Below are positions 1,905-21,614 of a stretch of DNA of 28,096 nt, in pieces; the stretch's first letter is position 1; every line of letters begins with the position of its first letter. The translations under genes and the position numbers were made by a program. Below the pieces are notes generated by a model, which was not told where the DNA came from, made no database searches, and was given only the letters and a program-made list of their open reading frames with translations. This stretch comes from an uncultured Planctomycetota bacterium. Its GTDB lineage: Bacteria > Planctomycetota > JACOTG01 > JAUIME01. Location: contig CAZQZX010000067.1 in the NCBI GenBank assembly GCA_964597885.1, positions 1-28,096 on the forward strand, written 5' to 3'.

Positions 1905-4331
1905 CTAGAGCACGCGAAGCTCCGCGGACTTGGCCTTTCGGCTCTTTCGCTTGCGGGCTTCTTCTTCCTCGAGCAGGCGCAGGATCTCGGCCTTCGAACG
2001 ATCCGAGTGCAACAGATCGATCAGGTCGCGGCGCGCCGATTCGTTCGACTGCTCGACCGCCTCGATCTGGCGCTTCATGATCGCCTTGAGCACCTCGTCG
2101 CTCATCTCGTTCCGGTTGACCTGGGCCGACTCGAGCGCCTTCTTCAACGGGATGATCTGTTGCTGGTGCTCGCCACGCATTCGATCGGTCTGCGAGAGCA
2201 GCTCGACGAGCTTCGCTTGGAGCGCCTTCGTGCGAGCTCGTTCCTTCGCGAGCTCCGCCTCGAGCTTGGCTTGAGCCGCCTTGAGATCGTGCTGCACATG
2301 TTCATTCTTCGCCTGCTGCGCGCGAATCTTCTGCATCGCGGCGATCTCGCGATCCCGGGCGCGCATCTCTTCGGCTCGCGCTTCTTCGATCGCGCGAAGC
2401 TCGTCGTACGCCCGGCGCTTCTGATCGTCGCGACGCTGTTTCTCGGCAGCGCGGCCTTCCTCGATCGCGCGAAGCTCGTCGTACGCCCGGCGCTTCTGAT
2501 CGTCGCGACGCTGATTCTCTTCGTAGGCGCGACGTTCGTTGTACGCGCGCTTCTCTTCGTAGGCGCGCTTCTCCTTGTACGCACGCTCCTCGTGCGCGAG
2601 GCGTTCCTCGAGCTCACGCTGCAGATCGTGCAGGTGCGCTTCCCGCGCGCGGATCTCTTCGTGCATCCGACGCTCGCGCTCCGAGATCTCGCGCTGCAGG
2701 GCTTCCTCGCGGGCGCGGATCTCTTCGTGCATCTGCCGCTCGCGGGCTTCGATCTCGCGAGCGAGATGCATCTCCTTGGCTTCGATCTCCCGCGCGAAGT
2801 TCCTCTCACGCGCTTCGATCTCCCGCGCGAGGTCCTTCTCGCGCGACTCGATCTCGCGAACGACCCGCTCGCGGGCCTCGAGCTCACGGGCGAGATCTTT
2901 CTCGCGCATCGCGTCCTCGATGCGGGCCCGTTCGCGCCTCTGGAGCTCGCGAGCCTTCTCCAGCTCGAGGATGACGCGCTTGTTCTTCTCGCTACCATGC
3001 TCGTCATAACGCGCGCGGGCCTCGTCGAGCTTGGCGCGAAGAGCCACTTCGTGGAGCTGCAGCTCGCGCACTCGCGCCCGCTCCGCCTGCATTCGTTCGA
3101 AGACTTCCGCCTTCTTCTTGTGCTCGGCGAGCACCTTCAGCTCTTCGGCGATCGCGGCCGCGCGCGCCGCTTCGGCGGTTTGCTTCGCGACCATCGCCTG
3201 GCGAGCTTCCAGCTCCGCCTGCTTTGCGAGCATCAGGTTCTCTTGCGCGGCCTTCTCGGCGAGGATCAGGTTCCTCTTGGCGGCCGCGATCTCTTCCTTC
3301 GCCTTCTCGTTCTTTTCGGGGGGGCAAGCCACGGCCGGTCGCATCGCGACGAACGCGAGTGCGGCCACGGCGACGAGCACCAGCGGCACGGCCCAGCCGA
3401 CCGCTCGGCCGGCGGAGTCGCGCTCGGCGCCGACAATCCGTCGAATTCTCTTCATCAGGGGTCCTCCAGTCGATGACATGGCCAAACGGTTCACGGGTCC
3501 GGTGTGGGGGCTGCGCAGCCCGTCCAGCGTCAAGAGTGCCCTCGCGTAAGCAAGAGCCTCGCCGCGGCGTCCCGCGGCGGCATCGTCACAGCAGTATTCG
3601 CGTTCCACCCGGATGCGGTTCGAAACCCACCACACGGCCGGATGGAAGAAGAACGTCGATTCGAAAGCAGCCTGCACGAGATTCACGAGCCCGTCGTGCC
3701 GACGCACGTGGGCGAGCTCGTGAAGGATCACCGCGCGGAGCTGCTCGGGAGGGAGCGCCGTCAGAGCGCTGGCCGGAAGCAGGATCACGGGACGCAGCCA
3801 GCCGACGACGATCGGCACGTGCGTGAGGCCCGACTCGAGGACGCGCACCGGCCGCGAGATGCGCCATCGCCGCGCCGTCTCCCGAACGAGCGAGCGGACC
3901 GCGGCCGGAGCCACACGTACGTTCTTGCGTCGAAGTCGAAGCGCGTAGGTCCAGTGAAGCACCACTCGCACGTGAAACAGGATCGCGCCGGCGCCCCAGA
4001 ATGCGGTGAGCATCGCGTAGAGCCACGGGATCTCACGCGCGCCTTCGAAGCTCTGCGTCAAGAGCGCGAGCGATTCCTCGCCGAGCGGCGGGACGTCAGC
4101 GACCGGCCGGACCGAAAGCACGAAGAACGTCGAGAGCGGCGCGAGGATCATCGCGATCATCGCCGCGAGCGAGACGGCGTAGCGCGCTTCAGGCGTCGAT
4201 CGCCGGAGCAGATGGAGGCCGAGCGCGAGCACGGCGGCGATCGCGGTTCCCTGCCACAGGAAGTGCAGGAACGTCAGGCCGGCGCTCTCGACGAGCGAGC
4301 TCCAGTCGATGTCGAAGTGAAGGGTCGGCAT
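1905..4331 (-). CDS. BlaR1/MecR1-family M56 metallopeptidase membrane protein. The N-terminal 4-TM domain carries an HEXXH motif. The C-terminal roughly 480 aa form a highly charged coiled-coil/single-alpha-helix-like repeat region with no recognisable sensor domain.
   Basis: The N-terminus has multiple hydrophobic helices and HELAHVRRHD (HEXXH) as in BlaR1 M56 peptidases. The start codon overlaps the stop of the upstream BlaI-like gene (ATGA at 4329-4333). The C-terminal half is E/R/K/A-rich with repeated units such as LAREIEARER and RAYEEKRAYNERRAYEE, and the protein ends without a globular domain. Confidence 0.8.
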   Translation of the reverse strand: MPTLHFDIDWSSLVESAGLTFLHFLWQGTAIAAVLALGLHLLRRSTPEARYAVSLAAMIAMILAPLSTFFVLSVRPVADVPPLGEESLALLTQSFEGAREIPWLYAMLTAFWGAGAILFHVRVVLHWTYALRLRRKNVRVAPAAVRSLVRETARRWRISRPVRVLESGLTHVPIVVGWLRPVILLPASALTALPPEQLRAVILHELAHVRRHDGLVNLVQAAFESTFFFHPAVWWVSNRIRVEREYCCDDAAAGRRGEALAYARALLTLDGLRSPHTGPVNRLAMSSTGGPLMKRIRRIVGAERDSAGRAVGWAVPLVLVAVAALAFVAMRPAVACPPEKNEKAKEEIAAAKRNLILAEKAAQENLMLAKQAELEARQAMVAKQTAEAARAAAIAEELKVLAEHKKKAEVFERMQAERARVRELQLHEVALRAKLDEARARYDEHGSEKNKRVILELEKARELQRRERARIEDAMREKDLARELEARERVVREIESREKDLAREIEARERNFAREIEAKEMHLAREIEARERQMHEEIRAREEALQREISERERRMHEEIRAREAHLHDLQRELEERLAHEERAYKEKRAYEEKRAYNERRAYEENQRRDDQKRRAYDELRAIEEGRAAEKQRRDDQKRRAYDELRAIEEARAEEMRARDREIAAMQKIRAQQAKNEHVQHDLKAAQAKLEAELAKERARTKALQAKLVELLSQTDRMRGEHQQQIIPLKKALESAQVNRNEMSDEVLKAIMKRQIEAVEQSNESARRDLIDLLHSDRSKAEILRLLEEEEARKRKSRKAKSAELRVL
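2386..2515. repeat. intragenic direct repeat, 75-bp period x2, with a roughly 51-bp core identical in both copies
   Basis: tcgatcgcgcgaagctcgtcgtacgcccggcgcttctgatcgtcgcgacgctg occurs at 2386-2438 and again at 2461-2513. The period of 75 nt equals 25 codons and encodes ...QRRDDQKRRAYDELRAIEE... twice in the minus-strand protein. Confidence 0.8.
2508..2910. repeat. intragenic short tandem repeats (18-bp units around 2508-2590; 33-bp units x~8 around 2640-2910, with a 66-bp super-period)
   Basis: Degenerate 18-bp units (cttctcttcgtaggcgcg / cttctccttgtacgcacg) encode KRAYEE repeats. The 33-bp units (cgcttcgatctcccgcgcgaagttcctctcacg / cgcttcgatctcccgcgcgaggtccttctcgcg ...) encode AREIEARERxx repeats. 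gcgcggatctcttcgtgcatc recurs at about 2647 and 2713. Confidence 0.65.
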
Positions 4332-13163: not shown

Positions 13164-13616
13164 GGTCTCGTCCTCCTTTCTCCCGGCTGCCGCGGCGTCA
13201 TTGCCGCGCACACCGAGGTTCGGTTCTCGTGTCCTTCCATCGGTCTCGATGACACCGCGCCGTCGAGTGCGGTAGAGCCTTCAGGGGGCGGACCGTCTTG
13301 TCCGCCACACCTTCGTACGCGGAGCGCAACTTGAGCCCGCGGGCGAGCCTCGATCGTCACCGACGCGGACGACACCCGGCGACACCCGGGACACGCATCG
13401 CTGCGTTTCCCGAGCTCTTCGGGGTCGAACCACGCCACGCGAGCGAGGTCGCATCGCGAGCGGTATCCGCGCGCTGCAGGGCGCCGTCGCGTGCTGCTAC
13501 GGGAATCGATCGCGCCGGTCGCCGCCCTCGGTTCGAGGCACGGCGGCCGCGGTCACGCTTCCCGGAGCCGGCCGATGCGACGGTCGCCCCCATCCGGCAA
13601 CGTGGAGATTCGTGCG

Positions 13617-13690
13617 GTACGAATGCAGGAATCGAACCTGCGACAGCCAGATTCAAGTTCTGGTGCTCTACCCATCTGAGCTAATCCGTA
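13617..13690 (-). tRNA. tRNA-Gln (anticodon TTG), 74 nt, no encoded CCA
   Basis: The minus-strand sequence folds into a cloverleaf. The acceptor stem is TACGGAT/ATTCGTA (U1:A72, as in bacterial tRNA-Gln, with one G-U pair). The D-arm is GCTC-AGATGGGTA-GAGC. The anticodon stem is CCAGA/TCTGG with loop ACTTGAA (anticodon UUG). The variable loop is CTGTC, and the T-arm is GCAGG-TTCGATT-CCTGC. Confidence 0.8.
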
Positions 13691-14093: not shown

Positions 14094-14130
14094 CCGAAAA
14101 ACAACCGAGCCGCAGATGATAGCGGCTCGG
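14094..14130 (-). terminator. rho-independent terminator (minus strand) about 105 nt downstream of the giant gene's stop
   Basis: 9-bp perfect stem CCGAGCCGC/GCGGCTCGG (14105-14130) with an 8-nt loop, followed on the minus strand by TTGTTTTTCGG. Confidence 0.65.
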
Positions 14131-14234: not shown

Positions 14235-17200
14235 TCATCGACCTTGGTGAAGCGCATGCACGGTGAGATGCATCTCGTGCTCGAGAGCGCGGCCCTTCGC
14301 GTCACGGATCGACCATGTCACGTGTGCTTGCATCGCAGGCGCGACGTCTTCGATTCGAAGACGCACCGTCTTCGCATCCGCCGCAAGCTCGACCGAATCG
14401 ATTCGCCATTCGGTACGCCGATCCTCTCGGCCGTCGAGGTCGTACGTCGCGGATCCATAGTCGGCCGTTCGGCGATAGTTCCACGCCAGAGCCGACCAGT
14501 TCCCGGGATCGCTCGCCGACGCCTCGTCGAGGCGATGGAGGAACGTCAGCGCGAGGCCGTCCGATGTCGCGCGAAGCGCGACCGGTACGTTGAGGCTCTC
14601 GGACCACGCATCGACGCGCGGTCGAATGCGGTAGAAGCCGCCCGGCGCGGTGCGATCGCTCGACCAGCCGAACAGTCCGCACACGTAGAGGTCGCCCGTC
14701 GCGGGATGGATCTTTCCCGCGAGCAGCCCCGTCGGGAACTGCAGCCCGAGCTTCACGATGCCGCCCTGCGCGATCGGCTCGCGGCCCTCGACCGGGACAT
14801 CGTCACGCAGCACGAGGTACACATCGCCCGTTCCGTACGACAGACCGAGAATCGATCCTTGGAGCGGCCCCCACGCCGGGTGATCGACGTACAGCTGCGA
14901 GGACGGAGAGCGATCGAACGTGGGATGCATCCAGCAGAGCGGCGGCTCGTACGGAGCATCGTCCGGCCACGGCTCCTGCACGCGCTCGCCGTCGCGCTCG
15001 ATGCGTCGCGTTCCGCCGCCGGCCGCCCAGCCGTTGCCGTAGAAACGCGGCGCCGCGCGCGCCCCCGAAGTCGGTCGAATCAGGTTGATGCGATTCGCCG
15101 GCGTCCAGTGTCCCTCCTGGTCGGAACCGAGCAGCGATCCGTCCGGAAGGATGCCGAGGCCGATCGGCGCACGGAATCCGCGCGCGACGACTTCCGATTC
15201 GGCCCCGTCTGAAGAAACTCGGATCACGGTGCCGTGATGATCGTGCGCCGCGAGCTTCGCGTGGCGCGCCGCCTTGTGATAGTAGAGACTCCCGTCCGGC
15301 GCGAAGAGCAGTCCCGATGCCGGCTCGTGGAAGTGCTCGCCGTTTCGGTTCGCGTTCGTGAAGCACTCGAGCGCGTCCGCCTCGCCGTCGCGGTTGCGAT
15401 CGACGAGCCGCGTGATCTGATCGCGACCGAGCACGAGCGCCTCGCCGCCTTCGCGCACGGCGACGCCGAAGGGCTGGTTGAGCCCCGTAGCGGTCCGCGT
15501 CCATCGAAGCTCGTTGAGGTCTTCGTCCAGACCGTCGACGCGCCAGACGTCTCCCGACCACGTCGCGATGAGCGCCGACGTCGGTCCACTCGCGCTCGCG
15601 TCGGGAATGAAGTCGAACGCACCGAATCGCAGCCACGAGTCGAACGGGTTCTCGGCCGGCCACGTGAGCTGATCGATGCGGAACGGTCGCGCCGCCCCGA
15701 CGGTTTCCTCGAGCGCGCGGCGCGTCCAGGCCTCGACCGTCGAGCGAGGACCGCGGCGACTCGAGATCGCGACCTCGACGTCCGCATCGGAGCGCGGCAG
15801 CGTGAGGACGGCCTTTGTCCCGTCGATCCGCACCGTCGCGGCCGCGCCGTTCGACGACGGGCCCTTAACGCCCTGACGCGACGCTTCGCGAACGATCCTC
15901 GCCTCGACGATCGGTTCTCCCGACATCGCCGCGACTCCGGCCATCGCCCCGTCGTCGACGCATGCGCCGAGCAACAGCAGACCGTCCATGTAGCCGCTGA
16001 ACCTCGACACCTCCGGGAAGTCCTCGTTCGTCCATCCGAATCGAGGGCGAAATGCAGAGCGACTCTCCTCCCGCCCGAACGGGAGCGCACGCGAGGCCAC
16101 GCGCGCGCCGTCGACGAACAGTCTCACCTCGCCGCTGTCGTGACGCCACGTCGCGGCGACATGGTGCCAGGATCCGTCGGCGATCTCCGGGCCTCCTTGA
16201 ACGACGCCGACCCAACCGACGTCGAAGGTGAGTTGCCCGCCCCGGAGGAACAGCGTGACGCCGTCCGGGCACCAGCTTCCTTCCGGAGGCGACACGGCGA
16301 ACACCGTCCCGTCGCTCGTCGTGTGGATCCAAGCGGCCACGGTCAGGTCCTGCTCGCCGAGATCGACGAGCTCGGTCTCGACCCAAGCCGCTGCCGTCCC
16401 GTCAAAGTCGAGCGACCGGCCCGTCACGCCTCGACGCCACGTCACGCCGTCGAGGCGCAGGTCGTCCCTGTCGCGGAAGGCATTTCGCTCGTACGCGCCG
16501 CTTCCGCGATCCGAAGGCCACCAGCCGATCGGGGAGGCTCGCGTGAGGTCGGGCGCAGACGCTCCGACGGACGAGAGCACCACCGCGGGCAATGGCTGCC
16601 TCGCCGTGGCCGGAGACGCATCGAGCAGCTCGACCGACGCGCCGCCGGACAGATCGATCTCTCGGGCGTCGGCCCCCGCAGCGTGCACGATGCGGCGCTC
16701 GTCGCGATCGTCGAACGTCATCCCGACGACGCCTCGCGTCACGAGCGGATCGCCCCACCGCGAACGCGCTCGCTCGATGGCGGTATGAATGTCGTCGCTC
16801 AGCGACGCAGGCGGGTCGGCAACCCCGGCGGCACCCACGCGCAGGTGGAACGCGCCACGTCGCGGCCCGCGCCAGGCGGACGCGCGGCCGAGAACAGGCA
16901 CGGCCTCCGCGTCGCCGAACGCACGAGTCGCACCGCGATCGTCCGACGCGGAAGTCATCGCGAAGATCGGCCCGGCGGATGAACCCTCCGACGACTTGCC
17001 GGCAGGCTCGACGGTGACCTCGCGCACGAACGCGAGCCCGTCCCCGGTGCGCTCCGCGAAGACGCGCTCGAAGATCGTGTACGCACCCTCGCCAACGGCG
17101 TACGAGAGGATGACGTCGTCGCCATCGAGGTGGAGGCCCGACCATCGGCCGAACGACGACGGGATCGGACCGAACGGCTCGTCGCGCGGATCTTCATCGA

Positions 17201-18632
17201 GACGGGAGACATCCGTCGGCGTGACACCGGGCAGCGCGTCCGCCCGCAGCAGCGGCTCGCCGCGAATGCGCGGAAACGTTCCATGCGGTCCGTCGAAGAC
17301 GATGCCGCGAAGCTCGAGCTCGCCGCGCCACACACATCGCCATGCGAGCAGGTCCGTGTCGAAGACGGCCTGAAGGTCCGTGGGCTCTCCGTCCGGGGTT
17401 CGCAGACGAAGAACGATGCCCTTGTGCACCGGCGGCAGGTCCGGCCCGATGCCGACCGCTGTCGACAGGAACGGGCCGTAGTCCATCCGCTCCCACGGAG
17501 CGTCGCCACCACCGAGCTCTTCGTCCTCCTCCTCCTCTTCGTCGAACGACGTCGTCGCGGGACGCGACTCACCCTCGGGCATCGCACGGTGCGGCCACGC
17601 CGGGGTGTCGGGAGGATCGTCGAGGAACGGGGACTCGCCGAGCGCGAAGTCCTCGGGCTTGAGCTCGAGCTCGGCAAACCACTCGTCCTCTTCGATGAAC
17701 CCGTAGAAGCTCGGATAGAACGGATCGACAAAGTCGACATTCGCGCGCGCCGGCACCTCGAGCCCGGTCAGGCTGTAGCACGCGTTCACGACGAGTCGAC
17801 GCAGCCCCTCGGAGACGAAGTCGACAGACGCTCCCGCCGTCGTGCAGAACGAACGCCCCGTCGTCCGACCGTTCGGCGCGGTGTACGTGTGGAGCCACGC
17901 GAGCGCCTGCATGGGATCGTTCTCTTCACCGGCGACGTTCGCCGAGTCCGGGTGAAGCGATTCGGTGACGGCGCCGCGCATCAGGATCGTGTCGGCATCC
18001 GTCAGGTTCTCGACGCCGTACACATCCGAAGGCGCAAAGACGTTGTCCACGCCGCGCAGGATCGGATGGTCGGCGTTCGCGGCTTCGATCACGCCCCGGC
18101 AACCTTCGAACTTGTGTCCACCGTGGTGGCGCACCCAGCGCTCGCCGAGGACGCGGATGCCGAAGTCACCGAAGGCGATCGCGTCCTTCCCGCTTCCGAA
18201 CCGACCACGTCCCGCGAAGGCGTGCGTCGCCGTGCGCAGTCCGATCACGGGCTTGCCGGCATCGAGGAAGCGCGTCACGTGCGCCGCAGCGGCCGCGTCC
18301 GGACGACGAAAGCGCGTGGCGATCACCATCAGCTCCGCGTCGTCGAGCGCCTCGAGACCGCGCAGCCCTTCCTGGTGGTTCGGATCGATGTAGTCGTCCG
18401 TCCACGAGAAGAGGACCGTGCAGTCGAAGCCGTGTCGCTCCGCCAGGATCTTGGCGAGCATCGGCATCGACTCCTCCGAGCGGTACTCCTCGTCGCCGGC
18501 CACGAGAACGATGCGCTTGCCGGAGCCGGGTCCGGGGCGGCCCTCGAAGGAAAGTCGATCGGCGGCGGTCGCTCGCGACGCCGAGAGGGCCTGGCAGACC
18601 AGGACGATGAGGATGCAGGAAAGGCTCTTCAG
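14235..18632 (-). CDS. giant secreted multidomain protein: signal peptide, ThuA-like (class-I glutamine-amidotransferase-like) domain, LamG/concanavalin-like domain, and glucose/sorbosone-dehydrogenase-like beta-propeller plus C-terminal domain. The conservative GTG start is at 18503; the probable start is further upstream.
   Basis: There is one continuous GC3-rich frame of about 4.4 kb. Upstream of the first GTG (18501-18503) the frame stays open back to a TAG and encodes a classic signal peptide (L)KSLSCILIVLVCQALSASRATAADRLSFEG. The only candidate initiator is CTG at 18630-18632, preceded by GGAGAC. LamG-like signatures appear in the middle (...WHHVAATWRHDSGEVRLFVDGARV...). SGDH/PQQ-propeller-like strings follow (GLNQPFGVAV..., LLFAPDGSLYY...). 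Confidence 0.7.
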   Translation of the reverse strand: MKSLSCILIVLVCQALSASRATAADRLSFEGRPGPGSGKRIVLVAGDEEYRSEESMPMLAKILAERHGFDCTVLFSWTDDYIDPNHQEGLRGLEALDDAELMVIATRFRRPDAAAAAHVTRFLDAGKPVIGLRTATHAFAGRGRFGSGKDAIAFGDFGIRVLGERWVRHHGGHKFEGCRGVIEAANADHPILRGVDNVFAPSDVYGVENLTDADTILMRGAVTESLHPDSANVAGEENDPMQALAWLHTYTAPNGRTTGRSFCTTAGASVDFVSEGLRRLVVNACYSLTGLEVPARANVDFVDPFYPSFYGFIEEDEWFAELELKPEDFALGESPFLDDPPDTPAWPHRAMPEGESRPATTSFDEEEEEDEELGGGDAPWERMDYGPFLSTAVGIGPDLPPVHKGIVLRLRTPDGEPTDLQAVFDTDLLAWRCVWRGELELRGIVFDGPHGTFPRIRGEPLLRADALPGVTPTDVSRLDEDPRDEPFGPIPSSFGRWSGLHLDGDDVILSYAVGEGAYTIFERVFAERTGDGLAFVREVTVEPAGKSSEGSSAGPIFAMTSASDDRGATRAFGDAEAVPVLGRASAWRGPRRGAFHLRVGAAGVADPPASLSDDIHTAIERARSRWGDPLVTRGVVGMTFDDRDERRIVHAAGADAREIDLSGGASVELLDASPATARQPLPAVVLSSVGASAPDLTRASPIGWWPSDRGSGAYERNAFRDRDDLRLDGVTWRRGVTGRSLDFDGTAAAWVETELVDLGEQDLTVAAWIHTTSDGTVFAVSPPEGSWCPDGVTLFLRGGQLTFDVGWVGVVQGGPEIADGSWHHVAATWRHDSGEVRLFVDGARVASRALPFGREESRSAFRPRFGWTNEDFPEVSRFSGYMDGLLLLGACVDDGAMAGVAAMSGEPIVEARIVREASRQGVKGPSSNGAAATVRIDGTKAVLTLPRSDADVEVAISSRRGPRSTVEAWTRRALEETVGAARPFRIDQLTWPAENPFDSWLRFGAFDFIPDASASGPTSALIATWSGDVWRVDGLDEDLNELRWTRTATGLNQPFGVAVREGGEALVLGRDQITRLVDRNRDGEADALECFTNANRNGEHFHEPASGLLFAPDGSLYYHKAARHAKLAAHDHHGTVIRVSSDGAESEVVARGFRAPIGLGILPDGSLLGSDQEGHWTPANRINLIRPTSGARAAPRFYGNGWAAGGGTRRIERDGERVQEPWPDDAPYEPPLCWMHPTFDRSPSSQLYVDHPAWGPLQGSILGLSYGTGDVYLVLRDDVPVEGREPIAQGGIVKLGLQFPTGLLAGKIHPATGDLYVCGLFGWSSDRTAPGGFYRIRPRVDAWSESLNVPVALRATSDGLALTFLHRLDEASASDPGNWSALAWNYRRTADYGSATYDLDGREDRRTEWRIDSVELAADAKTVRLRIEDVAPAMQAHVTWSIRDAKGRALEHEMHLTVHALHQGR

Positions 18633-18994
18633 GGGTCGGTCTCCGCGCTCGGGTCGGGGTTTGCCGGCATTCTAGCGCACGCGCGAATCCGGGATCGCCG
18701 ACACGCGAGAGAAAAAGATTCGGTTTCGTGTCACGAACCGCGTCCGCCCCATCCCCCCGTAGAGGGCCAGTTGCCTGGCCCTGCGCAGGAAGGAGATGGA
18801 TTCGATTGGCTGTCGAGTCCCATGGGCGACGCGACGGTGTCGCCAGTAGCCTCGCACCTTCGTAGGCGGCTCCCCTCTCTCGGGGGCCGCCTACGGAAGC
18901 GCCGCCGGACCGCACGTCCGGCACCTCCCGGCCGGCCCGGCCGGCCCGGCCCGTGATCCCGAACCCGTTTCTTCGCGCGCTCCATTGACGCCCC

Positions 18995-19045: not shown

Positions 19046-19059
19046 CAGGAGTGAGCGTC

Positions 19060-19692
19060 ATGCCCGCCGGACGAAGCGAAAAATCCCGCAATGCCATCCT
19101 CGAGGCAGCCGCAGCGCTGTTCTCGCGGAATCCGGGGGCCTCGCTCTCGGAAGTGGCCGAGACGGCCGACGTGGGACGCGCCACCCTCCACCGGCACTTC
19201 GCCTCGCGAGAGGACCTGATCCGCACGCTGGCTCTCGACGCGCTCCGGCGTACCGACGAGGCCACCGAGCACATCGAGCGCGAAGCCAAGAGCGCCGTTC
19301 ACGCCATGCAGCTGATGATCGAAGCCGTGGTCCCGCTCGGCGATCACTTTCACTTCCTCGCCACCGAGCCCGCGGCGCAGCGCGACCCCGAGATCGAGGC
19401 CGTGTATCGCCGCCAGCTCGATGAGGTCGCGGAGCTCGTCGAAGCCATGCGCGGCGAGGGCGCCGTCGGACAGGACCTGCCGACACCGTGGGTCGCTGCA
19501 ACCATCGACGCACTCATCTACACCGCGTGGACCGCCGTCCGCGAGGGATCGATTGCGCGCAACGACGCCGCCACGCTCGTCTTTCGAACGCTCCTTTCGG
19601 GGATCGGGCCCGAGCCCGCCGCCGGATCGAGCGTCGCCCCGTCCGGGAGTCCGGGACGCACGACGAAGAAGAAGAGAGGAGACCAGTCATGA
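19060..19692 (+). CDS. TetR/AcrR-family transcriptional regulator
   Basis: The N-terminal HTH is NAILEAAAALFSRNPGASLSEVAETADVGRATLHRHF. AGGAG lies 8 nt upstream of the ATG at 19060; the track's GTG at 19051 is less likely. The stop overlaps the next gene's start (ATGA 19689-19692). Confidence 0.85.
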   Translation: MPAGRSEKSRNAILEAAAALFSRNPGASLSEVAETADVGRATLHRHFASREDLIRTLALDALRRTDEATEHIEREAKSAVHAMQLMIEAVVPLGDHFHFLATEPAAQRDPEIEAVYRRQLDEVAELVEAMRGEGAVGQDLPTPWVAATIDALIYTAWTAVREGSIARNDAATLVFRTLLSGIGPEPAAGSSVAPSGSPGRTTKKKRGDQS

Positions 19693-21614
19693 GATCCCCC
19701 ATCCGCCACGGCGCCATCCTTCTGTCGCTGCTCCTGCTCGTGTCCGTCGCAACGGCGACGGAGCCCGTCGAAGCCTCGCGCGTGCAGGACCTCCGCGCGC
19801 TCGATCTCGACGGCAAGATTCGCCGGCCCGGCACCGAGAACGGCGTTCGCCCGATCGCGCTCGTCTTCCTCGACACCGAATGCCCGATCTCGAATCGATA
19901 TCTCCCGCGGCTCGGTGAGATCGCGCAGGCTGCCGGCAAGCTCGAGGTCGACTTCTTCGGCGTGCTCTCCGATCCGAGCCTCTCGCGGGCGAAAGCTCTC
20001 GAGTACCGCAAGGAGTACGAGATCCGCTTCCCGATCCTCTTCGACACGACCGGCGAGATCGCCGCACGGCTCAAGCCGACGCACGTTCCGGAGGCGTTCG
20101 TGATCGACGCGCGCGATCGGGTGGCCTACCGCGGGCGCATCGACGATCAGTTCGCCGCGATCGGCCGGCCGCGCGCGAGGGTCAGCTCCCACGATCTGAA
20201 AACGGCGATCGAAGCCACGGCCGCCGGGCGTGATCCCGCGAGCCGACACGAGCCGCCGGTCGGATGCATCTTCGAAGCGTGGAACACGGCCGCCGAGGAA
20301 GCGAACGAGATCACCTACGCGCGCCACATCGCGCCGATCCTCGCGACGCAGTGCGTGGACTGCCACCGCCCCGGCGACATCGGCCCGTTCTCGCTCACGA
20401 CGTATGAGCAGGCCAGGCGCCGCGCCAAGATGATCGCCGCCGTCTGCGAGGATCGCGTGATGCCGCCCTGGCACGCCGAGCCCGGTGCGCACTCCTTCCG
20501 CGACGAGCGCATCCTCTCCGATCGCGAGATCGCGATGCTGCGGAGGTGGGCGGACCACGGTGCGCCGCGCGGCGATGAGGCCGACCTCGTCCGGGTTGCC
20601 GCATCCGAGAAGGATTCCGGCTGGCGACTCGGCAAGCCCGACCTCGTCCTGACGATGCCCGAGCCCTTCGAGGTGCCCGCGTCCGGCGAAGACATTTATC
20701 GCTACTTCGTGATCCCGAGCGGAGTCACGAAGGACCGCGCGGTCTCGGGCTTCGAGTTTCGACCCGGTGACGCCACCGTCGTCCATCACGCGATCGCGTT
20801 CGTCGACTACACCGGCACCGCGCGCAAGCTCGACGCCAAGGACCCCGCACCGGGCTTCACGATGTTCGGGAACACGAACGATCTCATGGAGATCGAGGAT
20901 CTCGGCGGCGTGGGCGGGTGGGCTCCCGGTTCGGAGCCGTACGAGCTTCCCGATGGCCTCGCGATGGAGCTGCGCGCCGGAGGCGACATCGTCCTCGAGG
21001 TGCACTATCACCTGAGCGGCAAGAAGACGACCGACCAGAGCACCGTCGCCCTGTTCTACTCCGAAGACCCGGACGTTCGATTCGTCGACACCGTGGTGAT
21101 CGGCACGCAGTACGTGGACATCAAGCCCGGGGACGACGCGTACCGGCGCTACGTCTACATGGACGTGCCGGTGGACATGCGAATCATCGACATCGGTCCG
21201 CACATGCACTTCATCGGGCGCGACGTCGAGGTGACGGTCACCTTCGCGGACGGAACGAAGCACTCGCTTCTGAGCGTGCCGCGATGGGACTTCCGCTGGC
21301 AGAGCGTCTACGTGTATCGCGAGCCCGTTCGCATCCCCGCCGGAAGCCGGATCGAGGCGACGTTCACGTTCGACAACTCGGCCGACAACCCGGCGAACCC
21401 GAGCTCACCACCCGGCCGCGTGCGATGGGGATGGGGCACGAAGGACGAGATGTGCGAGATCTACGTCACGATGCTGCCCGATGATCCGCGTCATGCCAGT
21501 CAGCTGGAGTGGGCGTCGTACGCGTCGTGGCTCCGTCCCGCGCAGCCGAAGAAGGACGACCGCGGTGCCGCGAGCTCAAGGCGCGCAGGGACTCCCGCTC
21601 CGGCAGGCGGTTGA
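19689..21614 (+). CDS. secreted three-domain redox protein: AhpC/TSA-redoxin-like domain, mono-heme cytochrome c (CVDCH) domain, and copper type II ascorbate-dependent monooxygenase (PHM/DBH)-like domain
   Basis: It has a signal peptide (MRSPIRHGAILLSLLLLVSVATA). The redoxin-like region has a single Cys (FLDTECPIS). A CXXCH motif, QCVDCH, lies at 20352-20366. Copper-site-like motifs follow in order: VVHHAIAF (HH), LEVHYH (H), GPHMHFIG (H-x-H) and KDEMCEIYVTM (the Met ligand in an EMC context, as in PHM DEMCNLY). Confidence 0.8.
   Translation: MRSPIRHGAILLSLLLLVSVATATEPVEASRVQDLRALDLDGKIRRPGTENGVRPIALVFLDTECPISNRYLPRLGEIAQAAGKLEVDFFGVLSDPSLSRAKALEYRKEYEIRFPILFDTTGEIAARLKPTHVPEAFVIDARDRVAYRGRIDDQFAAIGRPRARVSSHDLKTAIEATAAGRDPASRHEPPVGCIFEAWNTAAEEANEITYARHIAPILATQCVDCHRPGDIGPFSLTTYEQARRRAKMIAAVCEDRVMPPWHAEPGAHSFRDERILSDREIAMLRRWADHGAPRGDEADLVRVAASEKDSGWRLGKPDLVLTMPEPFEVPASGEDIYRYFVIPSGVTKDRAVSGFEFRPGDATVVHHAIAFVDYTGTARKLDAKDPAPGFTMFGNTNDLMEIEDLGGVGGWAPGSEPYELPDGLAMELRAGGDIVLEVHYHLSGKKTTDQSTVALFYSEDPDVRFVDTVVIGTQYVDIKPGDDAYRRYVYMDVPVDMRIIDIGPHMHFIGRDVEVTVTFADGTKHSLLSVPRWDFRWQSVYVYREPVRIPAGSRIEATFTFDNSADNPANPSSPPGRVRWGWGTKDEMCEIYVTMLPDDPRHASQLEWASYASWLRPAQPKKDDRGAASSRRAGTPAPAGG

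Follow-up and report, generated by a model that had tools for sequence, protein, structure and literature searches.

Where does translation begin in a gene whose conserved coding sequence reaches farther upstream than any canonical start codon in its frame? This question is raised by a gene on the reverse strand of a 28,096-nucleotide (nt) stretch of DNA from an uncultured Planctomycetota bacterium (assembly GCA_964597885.1, contig CAZQZX010000067.1; the whole stretch is referred to below as the window), which encodes a multidomain protein of 1465 amino acids (aa) when counted from a CTG codon. Comparison with its homologues revealed that the coding sequence reaches upstream of the first canonical start, a GTG, and that the CTG occupies the position of the initiator methionine (Met1) of the family; from these observations, we infer that the CUG is actually used, a reading that is weighed below against its alternatives.

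Conserved coding sequence upstream of the first canonical start codon

The coding sequence counted from the CTG spans positions 14235 to 18632 (reverse strand, as for all features below unless stated otherwise) and comprises 1465 aa followed by a TGA stop at 14237-14235; the proposed CTG is residue 1 in the numbering used here, and the GTG is Val44. The G+C content at third codon positions (GC3) was 0.82, with a coding-type pattern at the first and second positions (GC1/GC2), and homologues could be aligned along the entire length of the protein. Upstream, the frame is closed by a TAG (18672 to 18674), and the first canonical in-frame start is the GTG at 18501 to 18503, an implausible start that would give a protein of 1422 aa. 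An initial annotation of this locus had placed the signal peptide upstream of any canonical start, suggesting either a rare CTG start or an indel in the assembly. Its coordinates and sequence, covering the open reading frame (ORF), the CTG, the GGAGAC, and the GTG at 18503, were all correct on re-check, and the in-frame codon list bore out the absence of canonical starts from the upstream TAG to Val44, with no ATG, GTG, or TTG among the 56 codons between TAG 18674-18672 and GTG 18503-18501. By itself, a missing canonical start over 43 to 56 codons is unremarkable: these three codons together make up 4.75% of the in-frame codons in the genes of the window, a run of this length without any of them has a P value of ∼0.07 to 0.12, and internal runs in the same ORF reach 124 codons. 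The absence gains meaning because homology identifies the sequence preceding the GTG as conserved and coding.

A search over 5.8 billion proteins retrieved 887 relatives, and more than 100 of the best 120 carried a domain 55 to 70% identical to residues 21 to 350 of the protein (∼330 aa). In homologues in which this domain is N-terminal, the initial Met is usually followed by Lys or Arg, and a hydrophobic segment then leads into AADRLVFEP...GKHIVLVAGDEEYRTEESMPML. The N-terminal region of the protein reads ...SASRATAADRLSFEGRPGPGSGKRIVLVAGDEEYRSEESMPML, with AADRLSFEG..GKRIVLVAGDEEYRSEESMPML as its counterpart of the homologue consensus AADRLVFEP..GKHIVLVAGDEEYRTEESMPML, and the sequence upstream of the GTG, AADRLSFEG...GKRIVLVAGDEEYR, matches the conserved N terminus of more than 100 homologues, the conservation running 19 residues beyond the GTG in the upstream direction. 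In an AlphaFold2 model of residues 21 to 400, with a predicted local distance difference test (pLDDT) score of 88.8 and a predicted template modeling (pTM) score of 0.87, the segments RLSF and RIVLVAG are β-strands, and the residue encoded by the GTG is the second Val in the RIVLVAG strand (model residues 20 to 26, pLDDT of >95). A start at the GTG would therefore remove one strand, half of another, and the export signal, and it was rejected. Thus, the signal peptide that had been described upstream of every canonical start is real coding sequence, as judged by its conservation with homologues.

The signal peptide, (M/L)KSLSCILIVLVCQALSASRA, is of the Sec type and is encoded by positions 18570 to 18632, with predicted cleavage before TAADRL. 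This call was heuristic, based on inspection and Kyte-Doolittle scoring, with hydrophobicity and charge compared to those of 100 homologue N termini. When the protein is counted from the CTG, its n-region consists of MK, with a charge of +1, a value shared with 45 of the 100 homologues, and the h-region, SLSCILIVLVCQAL, reaches a best 10-residue Kyte-Doolittle mean of 3.3 versus a median of 2.56 among them. Directly before the T of TAADRL stands SRA, with small residues at −3 and −1, in agreement with the criteria for Sec substrates of signal peptidase I (SPase I). On inspection, no twin-arginine motif (there is no RR in the signal peptide) and no lipobox were seen, with Cys6 and Cys13 lying outside any [LVI][ASTVI][GAS]C context, so that the Sec/SPase I route is to be expected. 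From these features, the product is predicted to be exported and cleaved.

The CTG codon as the candidate start

The proposed initiation codon, the CTG at 18630 to 18632, is the only near-cognate codon that keeps the signal peptide intact. It is preceded by a Shine-Dalgarno-like (SD-like) GGAG at 18641 to 18644, part of the GGAGAC at 18644-18639, with an 8-nt spacer; similarly, two further genes of the window carry GGAG or GGGAG before an evident ATG start, at 4331 and 8179. Moreover, the distance from Met1 to the motif G[DE]xEY[RQ] in 105 homologues has its mode at 43 to 45 residues (31/105), with a median of 48 and an upper quartile of 57, and the distance from the CTG to the GDEEYR of the protein, 45 residues, lies within this mode. 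Residue 2 after the CTG is Lys, the commonest second residue of the homologues (32/105). In the main frame, the codon log-odds score over the 13 codons that precede the CTG was −3.7, which is noncoding-like, given that coding windows scored 6.3 ± 4.6 and the intergenic region scored −5.4 ± 5.7. The CTG had been put forward as a possible initiator from its surroundings, and this proposal gained from the comparison, since the codon coincides with the initiator Met position of the homologues and has the GGAG 8 nt upstream.

Other candidate starts in the frame were discarded: initiation at either of the ATC codons of residues 7 and 9 would lose the n-region together with some of the h-region, initiation at the CTG of residue 11 would abolish the signal peptide, and the in-frame ATG at 18752 would require read-through of the TAG stop. 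That ATG opens an Arg-rich peptide, MGRTRFVTRNRIFFSRVSAIPDSRVR (18675 to 18752), which ends at the TAG and has a mildly positive codon log-odds score; it is probably due to chance. The RNA fold of the start region was indistinguishable from that of shuffled sequences (z = 0.35), and an Rfam scan detected no leader element or riboswitch upstream of the gene.

Most likely, ribosomes placed by the GGAG 8 nt upstream would initiate on the CUG with formylmethionyl-tRNA (fMet-tRNA), at a rate that would be below that of an AUG, and the product would be MKSLSCILIVLVCQALSASRA|TAADRL..., cut before TAADRL. We put the chance that the gene is intact, with a functional CTG start of a Sec-exported protein of ∼1465 aa, at about even.

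The argument is similar to that made for hda and yfjD of Escherichia coli, in which CTG starts are experimentally established (PMC3531124). Both likewise have conserved coding sequence upstream of the first canonical start and, at the conserved N terminus, a CTG accompanied by a plausible ribosome-binding site, and both were predicted by the same argument and then confirmed by mutagenesis (PMC3531124), whereas the present case is known from sequence alone. It also differs from the E. coli genes in its high-GC, Planctomycetota-like host, in its large and presumably secreted product, for which the choice of start decides export, and in that the searches revealed no orthologue with the same CTG. 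A literature search on CTG starts in Planctomycetes retrieved no papers. The CTG start probably adds one more case to a rare but established phenomenon, here in a protein family that is already known, although uncharacterized.

Such a start has practical consequences, considering that gene callers that accept only ATG, GTG, and TTG would truncate the gene at Val44, dropping the signal peptide and the first strand of the N-terminal domain and mislabeling an exported enzyme as cytoplasmic; homology to the N termini of the family can recover starts missed in this way. If maintained, a CTG start in the gene of a large secreted enzyme would add a further case of low expression set at initiation, which is known in E. 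coli and barely documented in Planctomycetota.

Alternative explanations for the start

Several observations weigh against a functional CTG start. First of all, searches of protein clusters, GTDB representatives, and JGI metagenomes, together with exact-product look-ups, yielded nothing near-identical from any other assembly or strain. The best match in the protein search for near-identical sequences had an identity of only 60 to 62%; the GTDB representative genomes yielded four loci in metagenome-assembled genomes (MAGs) of Planctomycetota at 54 to 62% identity and nothing closer; the JGI metagenome contigs yielded no match; and look-ups of the exact 1422-aa product of the GTG version, with either V or M as the first residue, likewise returned no match. 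With no such sequence for comparison, a maintained CTG start is indistinguishable from an erroneous base call or from a recent mutation of ATG to CTG. Moreover, no close orthologue with a CTG and no relative above ∼62 to 70% identity were found in any collection. CUG is also a weak initiator in E. coli, the sole organism in which it has been measured, with initiation at ∼0.02 to 3% of the AUG level (bioRxiv 10.1101/063800), and an out-of-frame ATG is located 38 nt upstream of the CTG, beside a CCCC run.

The alternative that survives best, although we regard it as unlikely, is that an ATG reads CTG here, either through a single-base sequencing or consensus error or through a recent natural mutation that would have left a hypomorphic or silenced allele. 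The CTG stands exactly at the Met1 position of the family and is followed by its commonest second residue, Lys; a change from ATG to CTG takes one transversion; no orthologue shares the CTG; and in E. coli, CUG is 30- to 5000-fold weaker than AUG (bioRxiv 10.1101/063800), all of which would fit such an event. On the other hand, the frame of 1465 codons is wholly intact, with high GC3, so that any inactivation would be very recent; there was no other sign of sequence errors within the 28 kb; and residual translation from a mutated allele would begin at the same CTG anyway.

An improbable explanation is that the CCCC run at 18636-18633 is one base short, by assembly error or genuine frameshift, or that tRNA-Pro makes a −1 slip on C_CCC_UGA, with the true start being the ATG at 18670. 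This ATG (18670-18668) opens a 13-codon upstream open reading frame (uORF) in the +1 frame, MPANPDPSAETDP* (18629 to 18670), whose TGA overlaps the CTG as CTGA and which has the CCCC run just before its stop, and a fifth C in the run would fuse both frames into a product reading MPANPDPSAETDP-LKSLSCILIV..., for which MPANPDPSAETDPLK would be the diagnostic peptide. In its favor, the resulting distance of 58 residues to GDEEYR would still be in the family range (upper quartile of 57), and the short frame has G or C at 12 of its 13 third positions and a codon log-odds score of +2.0, between coding and noncoding values, although 13 codons are too few for codon statistics to discriminate. However, the n-region of such a product would have a net charge of −2 (four acidic residues and one Lys), and a negative n-region occurs in only 1 of 100 homologue N termini, 92 of which are at +1 or more. 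In addition, no SD-like motif precedes the ATG at 18670, while the GGAG is correctly spaced for the CTG instead, and no other frameshift was found in the window. At least 15 other genes in the 28 kb have uninterrupted frames, with full-length Pfam matches where testable, indicating that the assembly is not indel-prone.

More improbable again is that the uORF is translated and ribosomes reinitiate on the overlapping CUG, aided by the GGAG, which is located inside the uORF, or, as a variant, that a −1 slip of tRNA-Pro fuses the two frames. The CTGA overlap and the CCCC run could possibly be a site of coupling or slippage, or a coincidence. Were the uORF coupled in this way, the weak non-AUG expression of a secreted enzyme would depend on translation of a leader peptide.

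Finally, initiation at the GTG at 18503, giving a cytoplasmic protein of 1422 aa with a fortuitous upstream "signal peptide," is very improbable: the GTG is the first canonical codon in the frame, and gene callers limited to the canonical starts would pick it or a later one, but it lies within a β-strand of a confidently modeled domain, the 19 residues upstream of it are conserved in more than 100 homologues that all have signal peptides, and no SD-like motif precedes it.

Domain architecture

Read from the CTG, the protein is composed of a signal peptide, a ThuA-like domain, an acidic linker, DUF6797, Laminin_G_3, a six-bladed β-propeller resembling soluble quinoprotein glucose dehydrogenase (sGDH), and a C-terminal β-sandwich, in that order. 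DUF6797 and the C-terminal β-sandwich were absent from the domain list of the initial annotation, which comprised the ThuA, LamG, and propeller assignments.

The ThuA-like domain (aa 22 to 350; 17583 to 18569) has a class I glutamine amidotransferase-like fold, as revealed by the AlphaFold2 model (pLDDT of 88.8) and Foldseek, in which the top matches of the N-terminal model were the ThuA-like proteins 1t0b (E value of 8.5e−8) and 4e5v (E value of 4.5e−6). The Pfam profile for ThuA, PF06283, did not match the protein even at an E value of ≤10, and sequence and profile searches of the N-terminal domain against the PDB gave nothing useful. Nevertheless, PF06283 was matched by 18 of the 22 aligned homologues, which are 26 to 69% identical to the protein, with a best E value of 1.3e−17. 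The ThuA assignment therefore stands by fold (1t0b) and by these homologues, not by a direct profile match. The domain is followed by a disordered acidic linker that includes FDEEEEEDEEL (17421 to 17582; pLDDT of <50 for model residues 344 to 380).

The next two domains were recognized directly. DUF6797 (Pfam PF20601; aa 422 to 516; 17085 to 17369) scored 58.8 bits against a cutoff of 24.9, and the LamG domain that had been proposed was confirmed by a match to Laminin_G_3 (Pfam PF13385; concanavalin A-like lectin/glucanase; aa 748 to 885; 15978 to 16391) with 56.4 bits against 27.6.

The six-bladed β-propeller (aa ∼984 to 1340; 14613 to 15683), modeled with the C-terminal 525 residues (pLDDT of 85.9), has a fold like that of soluble quinoprotein glucose/aldose dehydrogenases, with Foldseek matches to 5min (E value of 6.5e−10), 3das, 2g8s, and 3a9g, all soluble pyrroloquinoline quinone (PQQ) glucose or aldose dehydrogenases. 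Here too, the initial assignment to a PQQ dehydrogenase-like propeller was supported by fold (5min, E value of 6.5e−10), while the GSDH profile PF07995 had no direct match in the protein; precomputed matches to PF07995 exist in a few homologues. Thus, neither of the two hidden Markov models that had been named as checks, PF06283 and PF07995, matches the protein directly, and scans with Pfam and NCBIfam returned no ThuA or GSDH match. In a profile search against the PDB, the propeller gave a marginal sGDH match (E value of 0.054), with NHL-type blade motifs scoring better, and a DUF7133 match at aa 1048 to 1149 was subthreshold (17 to 19.5 bits versus 27). Alignment of the protein's own family revealed the invariant motifs EHFHE, ARHA, DQEGHW, and DRSP.

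The C-terminal β-sandwich (aa ∼1350 to 1465; 14238 to 14585), with strands at model residues 410 to 518 and a pLDDT mostly of >90, aligned in 20 of 20 members of the DUF6797-propeller family alignment. No CxxCH motif is present anywhere in the protein, and TIGR02604 of NCBIfam scored 15.9 bits, below its cutoff of 122.2.

Relatives and mosaic origin of the protein

The protein had been considered unusually large, which was not borne out: homologues with the same architecture are 1343 to 1383 aa long, and ThuA-bearing relatives reach 1641 aa. The same module order was found in proteins from Planctomycetota MAGs annotated as "ThuA domain-containing protein" (P0004, 1343 aa; P0007 and P0008, ∼1380 aa; loci L001 to L004). 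These three proteins are 54 to 56% identical to the core of the present protein (aa 401 to 1465), but their ThuA domains are of a different subtype, only 29 to 34% identical to its own. Unlike it, the architectural homologues start with ATG or GTG. For one of them (locus L003; 1717 to 5532 on the forward strand of Planctomycetota MAG contig JBCCGI010000068.1), the start is apparently a GTG (VNLLAPLFLSLAPLP...), indicating that non-ATG starts do occur in this protein family.

Closest to aa 401 to 1465, with 59 to 61% identity over the whole core, are four proteins of ∼1100 aa that lack ThuA (P0001, P0002, P0003, and P0005) and have their own signal peptide directly before DUF6797; their mature sequence begins at the motif D.PW.RMDYGPFLS, which they share with the core of the present protein. 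The C-terminal module also belongs to a large family of ∼750- to 800-aa proteins pairing DUF6797 with a propeller, some of which are labeled glucose/arabinose dehydrogenase by JGI.

In contrast, the N-terminal module finds its relatives elsewhere. The ThuA-like module (17421 to 18569) is 66 to 70% identical to a module of heme proteins of the Planctomycetes-Verrucomicrobia-Chlamydiae (PVC) type, and across PVC-type heme-binding CxxCH (TIGR02604) proteins and sulfatase-ThuA fusions of Planctomycetota and Verrucomicrobiota, the ThuA-like module is 55 to 70% identical to that of the protein, a similarity that includes the signal peptide and the AADRLVFEP lead-in. Unlike the PVC-type heme proteins, the protein has no CxxCH motif and no cytochrome c, HEAT, or GDSL domains. 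The junction between this module and the rest of the protein (14238 to 17420) is the disordered acidic linker with FDEEEEEDEEL. Taken by its sequence relationships, the protein looks like a ThuA-less core that acquired an N-terminal ThuA module, and this module brought along a signal peptide and a start position of its own. The mismatch in ThuA subtype between the protein and its architectural homologues further implies that ThuA modules were joined to the core at least twice. Such a mosaic origin of the N-terminal module is evidence of module shuffling in a large and wholly uncharacterized PVC-group family that combines ThuA-like, DUF6797, and sGDH-like modules.

Predicted function

The best structural matches of the propeller, the six-bladed sGDH 5min/1c9u, Asd (2g8s), and 3das, were found with Foldseek E values of 6.5e−10 to 3e−9, at target template modeling scores (TM-scores) of 0.5 to 0.68 and an identity of only 14 to 18% to the soluble PQQ dehydrogenases. 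Similarly, the N-terminal domain shares its fold with ThuA of the ThuAB system of Sinorhizobium and Agrobacterium and with 1t0b and 4e5v, at 14 to 17% identity to the solved ThuA-like proteins. ThuAB has been described as a dehydrogenase forming 3-keto-disaccharides (PMC8121099). Unlike the ThuA of ThuAB, the ThuA domain of the protein would be exported and is fused to other modules, and no ThuB (Gfo/Idh/MocA) or sugar isomerase partner was detected among the genes of the window.

These likenesses point to an extracytoplasmic carbohydrate-active or sugar-oxidizing enzyme, as had been suggested initially, whose role would be that of a periplasmic or extracytoplasmic sugar-binding, sugar-oxidizing, or sugar-modifying protein. 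Among ThuA-bearing relatives, additional cytochrome c or plastocyanin/azurin (cupredoxin) domains are frequent, a combination suggestive of sugar oxidation in the periplasm; the protein itself carries neither, so that a separate electron acceptor would be needed.

Genomic context

The gene appears to be monocistronic. A likely intrinsic terminator, with a 9-bp stem of which 8 pairs are GC and a T-run (TTGTTTTT), lies at 14105 to 14130, ∼105 nt after the stop, and a tRNA-Gln gene (anticodon TTG; 13616-13690), the sole Rfam match, is located downstream of this terminator. On the other side, a TetR-family regulator gene (19051-19692, forward strand) is divergent from the gene, with an intergenic region of 418 nt, and could act either on it or on a downstream gene for a 708-aa protein. 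The latter ORF (19488-21614, forward strand) encodes an odd pairing of AhpC/TSA (redoxin) with a weak match to a copper type II ascorbate-dependent monooxygenase C-terminal domain; as listed, it overlaps the TetR gene by ∼200 nt, and its true start is therefore probably further downstream.

The other neighbors are unrelated housekeeping genes, including those for an M56 peptidase, an ABC transporter, an endonuclease III-like protein, UppS, PhzF, a pyridoxal phosphate (PLP) decarboxylase, a Band 7 protein, RecD2, and SufBD. The GC content of the window is 64 to 71%, and the loci most similar to the gene come from Planctomycetota MAGs.

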